23,523 nucleotides of DNA from a virus. Taxonomy: Duplodnaviria; Heunggongvirae; Uroviricota; Caudoviricetes. The position numbers were made by a program. Shown here piece by piece: positions 3,001-6,000 of the stretch. The DNA is taken from IMG/VR virus record IMGVR_UViG_2703718820_000020, positions 1 to 23,523 of that record; one strand, written 5' to 3'. Every line of letters starts with the position of its first letter. Position 1 is the stretch's first letter.

Positions 3001-6000
3001 ATTCAAAAATTCGCCCCCATTGCCCGACAGCCGCCTTCTTAGTCTGCATGCTGGCCTCCGGTCATGGCTTTCTTGCGCCCTTTGGCATAGGCAATGATCT
3101 TTGACCTGATGAAATTGTGCACTTCAACCGAGGTTTGCAGCGGCGCGTTACTGAAGCCTTTAGGCCACACCCCGAACTTCTCTTTGTAGGTATGAGCGCA
3201 CCATCCGTCACTCAGTGGCTTACCTGTCGCGTTGCGGTAATTCTGATAGCCCTTGATCTCACTCCACCACCGCTGTTTTTCCTCGCGGCTGTATTCGCGT
3301 TTCCCTTTGTTTACGCGAGAGAGTTTTCGATCGCGGTCTGTTGCCACATCATCGCCACCAAGAGGACGAAACCCACATTTGGGACACATGTGTACACCAG
3401 CAGGCTTCATGAAGTGGCATTTGGGGCATTCTCTGGGAAGTTTTTCAGCTTTAACCTCGCCACCGCCAGCAGACGCTTTCATTCCGTCATTTTTACCCGG
3501 CAGTTCGTCATACTCGATATCCTCGGGGAAGCCCAGCCGATGAACCGTGCCGGAATGGTCGAAAATCAATGCGCGTTTTTTACCAGACGCAGTACGTAAC
3601 GCTCTCCCGATGCACTGCAACCAGCGGATTTCTGATTTGGTCGGACGGGCGTAGATCAGGCAGCGAACATCGCTGTCAAATCCCGCAACCAGTACGCCAA
3701 CGTTGACAATTATTTTGGTCGCACCCTCTTCAAAACGGCGAATGATGTCCTGTCGTTCATCATGGGGGGTATCTGCCGTCATCACCTCTGCGCCAATGCC
3801 AGACTGTAAAAACTCACGGGTAACAAAGTTCGCATGAGCCACATTCACGCAGAAGCAGATCGTCGGTAAATCCTCGCCATTCTCAAGCCAGTTGCTGACG
3901 ATATCGCCAACCAGATCCGAACTCCCCATGATGGATGCGAGCTGTTCCTCGTTGTAATCCCGTCCAAATACGGTGTTACTGGTTTTTACGCCAGCCAGAT
4001 CAGGCATTGAGGGGGCAAAAAACTCATAATCGCTCAGATCACCACGCTGAATAAGTTCACGAATCGTTGTAGGCTTGATCAGGCATTCGTAGTACTTCCC
4101 CATCCAGGCTGCGAACGGGGTGCCGGAAAGCCCAAGAACCCTGATATCTTTGTCCCGGATAACCTCAAGTAACGCACGACGCTTCATGTGTGCTTCATCG
4201 ATGATCAGCAGATCGATGTTGTCAGGAAACTCACGACGGATCAGCGTGTCGGCACTGGCAATCTGAATCAGTCGTGACGGGTCATAGTTAGGGTGATCAC
4301 GCCATACAAAACTGATTTCTTCCCACGGCAAACCGTATTCGGTGAAACGTTCCGCTGTCTGGTTCAGCAGGATGGTGTACGGACAGACAAACATCACTCG
4401 CATACCACGTTCAACCATTCCGGCGGTGACGAATGCTGCAAGACCAGTTTTGCCAGAGCCAGTGGGTGCATACATCAGGTACGTGCGATGCTGTTTCCAC
4501 TGGTGCCGCAGCTGGTTTAAACCGCGCTCCTGAGCAAAGTTTGGGGTGATTTTCAGCATGACGCCCCCTTGCCATTCGCCGGGATGATCTCGATCCCAGC
4601 ATCACTATAACTGGTCAGTTTCTTTGGCATTCGAAGCAACACAAAGCCTTCAGTGCCACGACGTGCCAATTCACGCAATTTCATGACTGAGCGGGGTCGC
4701 GGAGAGCTACGATCGATCTCAATAGCCACACTCCCACCAGTTTTTGCTATCGCGAGAATATCAACACGGAAATTTCTGCCATCGATTCTTACTGTGACAT
4801 CTCTTGCCACATGCATTCCCTGTGACTCAAGGATCGTTACAACATCAGCCAGAAAGCTGTAACGGTCCTCTGTTCTCAGTGGTACAGTGCTCAGTGTACG
4901 GATCAGTGTCGATTTTATTGCTGCTGACATAGTTTATCACTCAATAATTAGCTTGATAATTATTTCACCAGAAACTATCGCGCTCTTATACAGTGATCTA
5001 CCTAACCTATGTACCTGCCTTCTGGCCTAGGCCAAGGGATACAGGCCTTACCAACGACTCCACCCCCTTACCCCCTCCTCGCTTCCTTTCAGGAAATTAG
5101 TTGCATGTGAAATTATTTCTGACACAACTAACCGCCATCATGGTGTCGGGGGAAACTTCCGTACCGCTACTGGCGAAAGCATCCAGCCACGGCTGGCTCT
5201 CGCGTACTTCTGGACATACACCCGTAACCGGGTGTTGGCGCTCCGTCTTGCCCTGTTGCCCTTCCTGAACGATACAGGCTCCTTGTCCCACTCTTCCTGG
5301 TACACTCTCGCGTACTCTGCTGCAATTTTTACCCTGGTGGCCGGGTCTAGCTGTAACAATTGCTCCTGTATCCAGTCCCGATCAGCATCACAGTACTGAT
5401 CGGGCATAACCGTTTTGATTTGCCTGTTCACTCACACCTCCGATGGGCTGTGTGTCCAGGATTAATCATCACCTCTTACGAACGCAGGGAACGGTCGAAC
5501 CTCTTCCGCCTCAACTCTGCCGTCATCAAAGGTTTTGACGTAAATTTCACGTCCGACGAGAAGCGCTTTACTGATCGCGCTCTGCGCCACACCAAAGTCC
5601 TTAGCGGCTTTCTTCTGACCGAACCTGTATACGTAATCAGCCAGGGTCTCTTTTTTCATCGCCATAACTGACTCCTTCCAAATGTCCACATCATTACGCA
5701 CAGTTATTAAAATGTCAACACCGCAGATATTTCATTACATATAACCAAAGGTGATATGGTATGAATATGAAAAAGAAACCGTTAACCCCTGAGCAACTGG
5801 AAGACGCCAAGCGTCTTAAAAGCATTTTCATCGCTAAAAAGAAAGAGTTAGGCTTGTCACAGGAGTCATTAGCCTATGAACTAGGTGTTACCCAAAGTGC
5901 CGTTAATCAGCTAATGGCTGGCATCAACGCCATAAATGCCAGTCACGCAGCGCAGCTTGCTAAGTTACTGAATGTAAAGGTCGGAGATTTCAGCCCCAGC

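Follow-up and report, generated by a model that had tools for sequence, protein, structure and literature searches.

A conserved non-coding element beside the Eru1 helicase and primase genes of Stx phages, a candidate replication origin

The Eru1 module and its proteins

The DNA analyzed here is IMG/VR virus record IMGVR_UViG_2703718820_000020, positions 1 to 23,523 (hereafter the window), a lambdoid prophage of the Shiga toxin (Stx) type. We were concerned with a 207-bp non-coding gap (4931-5137) in its early right operon, and with the replication-type gene set around the gap, known as Eru1. Between positions 2000 and 5800 the window has 97% DNA identity to 98 records of Stx and related phages, among them TL-2011c (O103:H25, Norway 2006), P13374, phiON-2011 (O104:H4, 2011), phi191 and Shigella phage Ss-VASD. 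The gap carries no annotation in any of these 98 records.

The early right operon lies on the minus strand. Next to cI (5761-6474, plus strand) stands cro (5462-5701), followed by the gene of a basic 97-aa protein, p97 (5138-5431; phrog_852, no Pfam family), the gap, and the gene of a 125-aa protein, p125 (4553-4930). Then come a RadD-like SF2 DEAH helicase with a C-terminal zinc ribbon (Eru1A, 3039-4559; Pfam ResIII, DEAD and Helicase_C; phrog_16), a primase of the P4-alpha/T7 N-terminal type (Eru1B, 2078-3049; PF08273, PF23639 (DUF7146) and PF13362; phrog_510) and a DUF1367 protein resembling NinB/Orf recombination mediators (Eru1C, 1629-2078; PF07105, phrog_319), all on the minus strand, and after these NinG, NinH and Q. 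The genes of p125 and the helicase overlap in ATGCTGA, those of the helicase and primase by 11 nt, and that of the primase overlaps the next gene in ATGA. The gene order, the helicase and primase domains and the translational overlaps had been given in an earlier note made from the sequence alone, and they were recovered by open reading frame (ORF) reading, Pfam and PHROG. Its claim of a non-lambda replication module at the position of O and P also held: no Phage_rep_O/P domain and no Pfam or PHROG match to lambda-type O or P was found among the 10 ORFs tested. Likewise, no ORF of the window matched RepL (PF05732) of the RepL/oriL type.

The gene module itself has already been published. Llarena et al. 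2021 (PMC8044961) named it Eru1 and described eru1A as a helicase of 506 aa, eru1B as a Toprim protein of 323 aa and eru1C as a DUF1367 protein of 149 aa. The ORFs of the window have these lengths (506, 323 and 149 aa) and the matching domains, in this order, next to cI/cro and in place of O and P in a Stx-type phage. The Eru1 genes of TL-2011c, P13374 and phi191 are those of the window, none differing, and the helicase protein shares 98.8% identity with its TL-2011c counterpart. Genes for O, P, N, cII and cIII are missing from Eru1 phages, whose lysogens were shown to be unstable (PMC8044961). Eru1 has been defined by gene content alone, and the 97-aa and 125-aa ORFs, the intergenic region and the origin are mentioned neither there nor by Fagerlund et al. 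2022 (PMC8044961; PMC8951638). Four features brought out by the present computational analysis appear to be undescribed so far in searchable literature, namely the linkage of p97 to the module, the predicted nuclease fold of p125, a conserved backbone with fixed spacing and flanking dyads, and its mutual exclusion with RepL.

The earlier note had left out the 97-aa ORF, which is the constant companion of the helicase and primase. In 76 of 80 IMG/VR loci, a p97 homologue (43-57% identity) directly precedes those of the helicase and primase, and the same linkage is seen in Serratia, Photorhabdus, Klebsiella phage KPP5665-2, Yersinia phage YP3 and a Vibrio phage. A search with p97 matched more than 1000 protein clusters, every one annotated as "hypothetical," and searches of Pfam, NCBIfam, PADLOC and PDB returned no match. 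The protein occupies the "cII position," and a cII homologue or analogue was considered. This was ruled out because genuine CII proteins sit upstream of p97 in a Serratia and a Photorhabdus locus (L001 and L003; L numbers denote the loci compared). Thus, p97 is best regarded as a core, constant member of the replicon.

Among solved structures, the helicase is closest to Escherichia coli RadD (PDB 6jde, E = 5e-17), with weaker similarity to UvsW, XPB, RecG and PriA, and like RadD it has a zinc ribbon after the motor. Unlike a true RadD, it reaches 91 bits against the NCBIfam RadD model (NF053632), far below the cut-off of 720, and residues 15-346 alone align. Eru1A is accordingly classed as a related SF2 core, not a RadD orthologue. 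Because its core is closest to RadD, with UvsW, XPB, RecG and PriA weaker, it is predicted to be a monomer-type SF2 enzyme, not a hexameric fork helicase, and it probably serves as an accessory or initiation helicase. The primase combines a zinc ribbon (PF08273, E = 9.6e-15) with a Toprim domain (PF13362, E = 5.2e-11), as in DnaG/P4-alpha-type primases. It belongs with the phrog_510 DNA primases (E = 2.5e-139) and has no attached helicase domain.

For p125, described earlier as an unknown protein of the module, the structural model points to a PD-(D/E)xK (restriction-endonuclease-like) fold with the alpha-beta-beta-beta-alpha-beta core. The AlphaFold model was made with an alignment (a single-sequence model had a pLDDT of 42), and its homologues had to be collected by exhaustive phmmer, a word-indexed search giving near-identical proteins only. 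The best Foldseek matches are to the nuclease domain of Bax1, and residues D57, E71-x-D73 and K84 are invariant or nearly so, the lysine being off the canonical position. In archaea, Bax1 is the partner of the SF2 helicase XPB, and p125 is likewise coupled translationally to a helicase; unlike Bax1, p125 consists of a 125-aa minimal nuclease domain only, and its pairing with the helicase is putative. As is apparent from the loci described below, p125 is an optional and exchangeable cargo, translationally coupled to the helicase, and not a fixed member of the module.

A conserved backbone between two dyads

The gap contains an element of about 100 nt that is conserved across genera and that the earlier note had missed. 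This backbone (4986-5087, sense strand minus) opens with an AT-rich lead-in and continues with a G-rich tract, a spacer and a core with GATC. An nhmmer profile of 107 positions, built from 20 diverse loci, matched 67 loci and the window (E = 1.7e-15 in the window), once per locus, always on the sense strand and just 3' of p97. No off-target match was found in 609 kb, and none in any locus of the RepL type. The relatives include Yersinia, Klebsiella and Serratia, and conservation across genera is at E = 1e-12 to 1e-20.

In every such locus a G-rich tract stands upstream of the core, centred on G4-7 (T/A)AA G4-7 and following a short AT-rich run. The heart of the tract in the window, GGGGGTAAGGGGG (5063-5075, minus strand), reads G5-TAA-G5 on the sense strand, with a GC skew of +0.45; it is the C-rich tract that had been reported on the plus strand (about 5058-5087), which is G-rich on the coding strand. 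The pattern G4+ N1-10 G4+ is present in 35 of 35 distinct versions of the backbone, across all of which the non-template (sense) strand has a GC skew of +0.20 to +0.75. A peptide encoded by the G tract (a 34-aa ORF in YP3) was rejected, as changes in the length of the G runs shift the frame between lineages.

The core motif GGTTAGGTAGATCACTGTATAAG (4985-5007, minus strand) holds the sole GATC of the gap. It is kept in Yersinia phage YP3, L037, L055, L063 and L069-L088, and is replaced by a variant, AGATCACTATAGGG, in L040-L060. All lineages keep 72-80 nt between the heart of the G tract and the GATC core, despite a variable sequence in this interval. Around the core lies an island (about 5013-4955) that retains 24-27 of 30 identities inside an otherwise swapped cassette. 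A LexA box and an IHF site in the core motif were entertained and dropped, the by-eye matches being inconsistent across lineages. In L040-L060, the lineage with a ~100-aa gene (e.g., L040 3425-3445), the core reads TCACTATAGGGA, which is identical to the T7 class III promoter consensus from -9 to +4, possibly by coincidence; no phage RNA polymerase was seen in these loci.

The earlier note had singled out two palindromes. Both exist as read: an AT-rich inverted repeat, AATAATTA-N6-TAATTATT, at 4943-4964, and a perfect 12-bp palindrome, TGGCCTAGGCCA, at 5023-5034. Neither is conserved among relatives; the conserved parts are the G-rich tract, which the note had as a C-rich tract, and the GATC core, which it had not listed. 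The inverted repeat has a mismatch in most Eru1 relatives. The 12-bp palindrome lies in the variable spacer of the backbone and is lineage-specific, being absent in relatives whose flanking genes are 98% identical, and other GC-rich hairpins (GTGCC..GGCAC, AGTGCGAAGCACT) stand instead in L028, L036, L006 and L072. Only its right half overlaps a near-invariant CCA block. Each palindrome by itself is only mildly unusual, because at least one perfect 12-bp palindrome arises in the shuffled 207-bp gap with P = 0.039 and a perfect 8-bp inverted repeat with a 3-10 nt loop with P = 0.012, and the window holds eight perfect 12-mers.

Further order that had gone unnoticed is a 20-bp unit, TAGTT-N8-AATWATT, of which exactly four copies occur in 23.5 kb, all in the gap (4930-5130), versus none in 100 shuffles, the pattern having been derived from the very sites counted. 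The four units form two dyads. Dyad A (5097-5131) combines overlapping units at 5098-5117 (plus) and 5111-5130 (minus) just after the p97 stop codon, and is a 17-1-17 imperfect palindrome or hairpin (z = -2.8 as RNA). Dyad B (4929-4978) has units at 4930-4949 (plus) and 4958-4977 (minus), is centred on the AT-rich inverted repeat, and covers the ribosome-binding site and ATG of p125. Clustered repeats beside replication genes, as in iteron origins, are therefore present, but as two dyads and not as a direct array. The dyads are 153 bp apart from start to start, and in five other lineages flanking repeats of differing sequence stand 148-162 bp apart.

Within Eru1 phages, the backbone is almost invariant and substitutions are concentrated in the two dyads. 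Two pairs of dyad A are altered on both sides (e.g., TTAGTTG/CAACTAA to TTAATTG/CAATTAA), and 92.8% of cells are paired, among eight sequences and with the shuffle control only moderately exceeded; these changes lend modest support to a hairpin. Several lineages have a stable hairpin 3' of the p97 stop codon (z = -2 to -5.8), which is absent in the class-C and Serratia types. In Yersinia/Klebsiella-type lineages (L007 3101-3120, L006, L063, L066, L071, L072, L075), a hairpin with the conserved loop UUAAAGGU follows the p97 stop codon, at the place of dyad A in the window, and its stem covaries (CAGGC/GCCUG, ACCGGGC/GCCCGGU, CCAGAC/GUCUGG, CUGGGC/GCCUAG). The clades of p97 mostly track the repeat types, with the exception of L072, whose p97 is near-identical to that of L069/L075 and whose repeats are different. 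The dyads have no similarity to the cI-cro intergenic sequence, which argues against cI/cro operators, and p125 was discarded as a dyad binder since dyad type tracks lineage and not the presence or type of p125.

Signals of transcription were sought in the gap. In a scan for consensus hexamers at the correct spacing, no sigma-70 promoter was found within 4941-5137, the sole nearby match lying over the p125 start, and none in the equivalent regions of L007, L040 and L001. No intrinsic terminator was detectable in the gap or in three other lineages. An Rfam scan of 4000-8500 at E <= 5 gave nothing in the gap, the RNA fold of the whole gap has z = -1.64, and RNAalifold across 20 lineages returned 0 consensus pairs, that is, no structured RNA. 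A boxA-like CGCTCTTA at about 4979-4986 was set aside, being on the wrong strand for the transcript and not conserved in relatives. Finally, gap DNA had no match when compared with plasmids.

Exchange of the slot between p97 and the helicase gene

The stretch from p97 to the helicase gene, here called the slot, has different occupants among relatives. A gene of the p125 family is found in 35 loci and an unknown gene of ~100 aa in 13 loci. A RepL-like winged-helix gene (PF05732) is found in 16 loci and in a Vibrio and a Pseudoalteromonas phage (total 18), the relatives with RepL including L003, L009, L047, L048, L056 and L059. The slot is empty of genes in Serratia, YP3 and others. Two loci (L042/L043) have a third cassette, a 279-aa protein with direct repeats, and neither backbone nor RepL; the repeats, of CAAATGAGAATGATTATCAAA, and an A/C-rich run lie at about 3320-3520, before this protein, which has no informative Pfam match. 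The helicase-primase machinery is widespread in prophages of Enterobacterales, with at least three interchangeable slot occupants.

Loci L026-L036 share 98% identity with the window in p97 and the helicase, and just 37% in p125. Identity drops at about 5155 and recovers at about 4557, therefore the whole slot has been exchanged as a cassette. Further evidence that the slot is an insertion hot spot comes from L072, in which an HNH homing endonuclease (NUMOD4 and HNH_3; 3520-4140) is inserted between backbone and helicase gene.

The backbone is present in 67 loci and a RepL-like gene in 18, at the same slot, and the two are found together in none. On a neighbour-joining tree of the helicase, drawn without support values, loci of the backbone type and of the RepL type are interspersed, which suggests several switches between the two states. 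P1 RepL works with an origin inside its own gene (PMC9948254). Given this, the exclusion of RepL and backbone, and the third cassette, the slot looks like a site that encodes origin specificity.

A complete 37-kb Klebsiella phage genome has no replication genes besides this module. Several 37-42 kb "plasmids" of Klebsiella, Morganella and Enterobacter, L090 (NZ_CP076549.1) among them, turn out to be whole genomes of temperate phages, encoding integrase, cI, p97, helicase, primase and Q as well as lysis and morphogenesis functions; such records, deposited as plasmids, are probably excised or episomal prophages.

The gap as a candidate origin

Since the slot between p97 and the helicase behaves as a site encoding origin specificity, we infer that the gap is a cis-acting control region of the Eru1-type replicon and most probably its replication origin, a reading to which we give about an even chance. 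The position of the backbone is consistent with it, between p97 and the helicase gene within the sole replication-type gene set of these phages. Its conservation across genera, even inside a recombining cassette, also speaks for an origin, as does an anatomy like that of origins, with bracketing repeats at a kept distance and AT-rich DNA ahead of the G tract. Of the earlier suggestion that the region contains the operon promoter and/or the origin, the second half is supported, the gap being the best origin candidate, and the first is not, no sigma-70 promoter being detectable there in the consensus scan.

How such an origin would be opened is a more tentative matter. The best promoter found is a pR-like site upstream of cro (5690-5718, minus strand; TTGACA-17-AATGAT, 10 of 12 matches), and no sense-strand terminator above chance lies between this site and Q (window 1-5720). 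Most simply, the replication genes are read as part of a pR operon, with the pR-like site presumed to be the source of transcription. As in R-loop origins, the non-template strand is G-rich downstream of a pR-like promoter with no terminator in between. The lambda origin needs transcriptional activation, and the same may apply to Eru1.

After induction, transcription from pR would reach the backbone by way of cro and p97. Its G-rich transcript could stay paired with the C-rich template as an R-loop, or hold open the neighbouring AT-rich DNA in some other way. The displaced strand would then be engaged by the RadD-like helicase, for which p97 probably serves as adaptor, and primed by the Toprim primase, whereupon host polymerase, probably also host DnaB, would take over. 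The nuclease p125 would work with the helicase in an optional role. Opening by a transcription-driven R-loop is the mechanism that we favour, if only as a rather speculative proposal, because the backbone stands at the site of the initiator gene of relatives, is G-rich on the RNA-like strand, has pR upstream without a terminator, and neighbours a helicase resembling RadD, UvsW and PriA.

Several observations weigh against this reading of the gap. The 67 profile matches include the 20 training sequences and the independent ones are few (e.g., L090), making the support smaller than the count. A canonical G-quadruplex motif is found in just 13 of 35 backbone versions, and not in the window. The DnaA box TTWTNCACA is absent from the 23.5-kb window (0 versus 2.4 expected), the gap has a single GATC and no GATC cluster, and it thus resembles neither oriC nor ori-lambda. 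Even Eru1 phages that are nearly identical differ in their dyads, a variability more in keeping with a hairpin than with a fixed site for protein binding. Shared ancestry might account in part for the exclusion of RepL, and the helicase tree is a neighbour-joining tree without support values. Two loci, L080 and L083, have p97 and the backbone and no helicase homologue within 3 kb downstream. Lastly, an origin of Eru1 was found neither in PMC8044961 nor in PMC8951638, nor elsewhere in the literature searched. The contig of L083 also carries L082, L083 being the second copy there.

Comparison with known systems places the locus near several of them. Like lambda O/P with ori-lambda, it has the same place in the genome, in the pR operon between cro/cII and the nin region/Q. 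Unlike lambda, Eru1 is without O/P homologues, its candidate origin is intergenic and not inside an initiator gene, a G-rich tract replaces the four O iterons and the AT-rich region behind them, and the phage brings its own helicase and primase. P1 RepL/oriL shares the repressor-controlled early operon, and a RepL-like gene occupies exactly the slot of the backbone in the 18 related loci, whereas the window holds a non-coding element in place of RepL.

The R-loop origins of ColE1 (RNA II), T4 (oriF/ori(uvsY), with UvsW) and mitochondria (CSB II) resemble the gap in having a G-rich transcript, a C-rich template and a strong promoter upstream. They also resemble it in that no dedicated initiator is evident and an SF2 helicase of the UvsW/RadD/PriA type is present in Eru1. 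They differ in that there is no sequence similarity and no fold of the RNA I/RNA II type, that Eru1 encodes its own primase, and that the R-loop here is a prediction. In RSF1010 (IncQ; oriV with RepA/RepB'/RepC) and the pri-rep-ori of SaPI/PICI, too, the element has its own helicase, primase and a small third protein, and repeats flank GC-rich and AT-rich segments beside the rep genes. Their helicase is hexameric, whereas Eru1 has a monomer-type SF2 helicase and no identified iteron-binding initiator, and protein homology does not go beyond the general type of a Toprim and zinc-ribbon primase.

Among the alternatives, the one that survives best is that the region is an expression-control spacer. 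The hairpin 3' of p97 and dyad B would tune read-through, mRNA stability or translation downstream, and the G element would be a pause, anti-Rho or protein-independent antitermination signal replacing N and nut, both missing from these phages. G-rich, C-poor RNA is a poor substrate for Rho, which would suit such a role. So would the lack of an N homologue in Eru1 phages (PMC8044961), the stable hairpins after the p97 stop codon with some compensatory change, and the cover that dyad B gives to the start of p125. However, the backbone travels with the replication genes and not with the immunity or Q regions, and what replaces it is a replication initiator gene, RepL, not a regulator. Moreover, there is no conserved RNA fold and no predicted terminator to override, and the hairpin is missing in class-C and Serratia lineages that keep the backbone. 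We therefore consider expression control unlikely, though it deserves serious weight. If the element were merely a regulatory spacer, the finding would be an ordinary one.

A classical protein-opened origin, in which p97 or p125 binds the dyads, melts AT-rich DNA and recruits the helicase, and the G tract is a spacer or bend without an R-loop, would parallel the origins of RSF1010, SaPI and lambda. The arrangement of four 20-bp units as two dyads, the ~150-bp spacing of flanking repeats elsewhere, and the basic nature of p97, whose clades largely track repeat types, could all be understood in this manner. Against it, p97 is also present in RepL-type loci that have neither these repeats nor the backbone, and the nearly shared p97 of L072 and L069/L075 goes with repeats that differ. 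Furthermore, many backbone loci lack p125, the type of p125 does not follow that of the repeats, and conservation across lineages lies in the G tract and core, not in the dyads. A protein-opened origin is accordingly doubtful.

That the palindromes arose by chance where recombination joined the immunity and replication modules, and have no function, is highly improbable. They are mildly improbable singly and the gap does lie inside an exchangeable cassette, but chance cannot explain cross-genus conservation at E <= 1e-15, a spacing of 72-80 nt, a constant strand and four 20-bp units. Least credible of all is a cassette for anti-phage defence or another accessory role, made up of helicase, primase and nuclease, with the palindromes incidental: the helicase has weak domain-level PADLOC matches to PbeA, type IV restriction enzymes, DpdF and Cas3 models, and p125 has a restriction-endonuclease fold and a marginal match to PDC-S11, but the helicase matches cover a partial SF2 domain at <=63 bits versus models of 670-950 positions, primase and p97 have none, the profile searches proposed by the earlier note, for which clustering with defence families would have told against replication, placed helicase and primase in the PHROG DNA helicase and DNA primase families, and the genes stand at the O/P position of the pR operon in ~100 sequenced phages without other replication genes.

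Returning to an R-loop origin, a bolder form of the proposal can be stated. The Stx2a phages of the O104:H4 and O103:H25 outbreak strains might start replication without a sequence-specific initiator, through a pR R-loop at the G-rich element that is used by helicase, p97 and primase, the element being an exchangeable alternative to the RepL cassette. We regard this as a long shot. If it is true, replication, and hence toxin gene dosage, would be tied directly to the strength of pR transcription, which might partly account for reports that Eru1 phages form unstable lysogens and yield much phage spontaneously. These phages carry stx2a in the 2011 German O104:H4 and 2006 Norwegian O103:H25 outbreak strains and are reported to be far less stable as lysogens than Stx phages of the lambda type (PMC8044961). 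The output of toxin follows the replication of the phage, and window positions 4986-5087 offer a 100-bp target, with p97, the two dyads and p125 as further parts. The interchangeable occupants of the slot amount to a natural experiment in origin specification.

Three observations concern gene control in the neighbourhood. With no terminator before Q and no N homologue (PMC8044961), expression of Q might depend on pR activity alone, an arrangement that could itself have to do with the reported instability of Eru1 lysogens. A pair of HicA toxin (7222-7476) and HicB antitoxin (6881-7225) is encoded on the minus strand, where cI gives way to the leftward early genes. Beyond them, at 8116-8303 (plus strand), Rfam models of isrK (58.7 bits) and C4 antisense RNA (77.1 bits) are matched, immediately upstream of, and running into the start of, a 260-aa Rha-family protein with an Ash-like N-terminus (8220-9002, plus strand), an arrangement that resembles the immI-like C4-antirepressor of P1/P7, here inside a Stx prophage.

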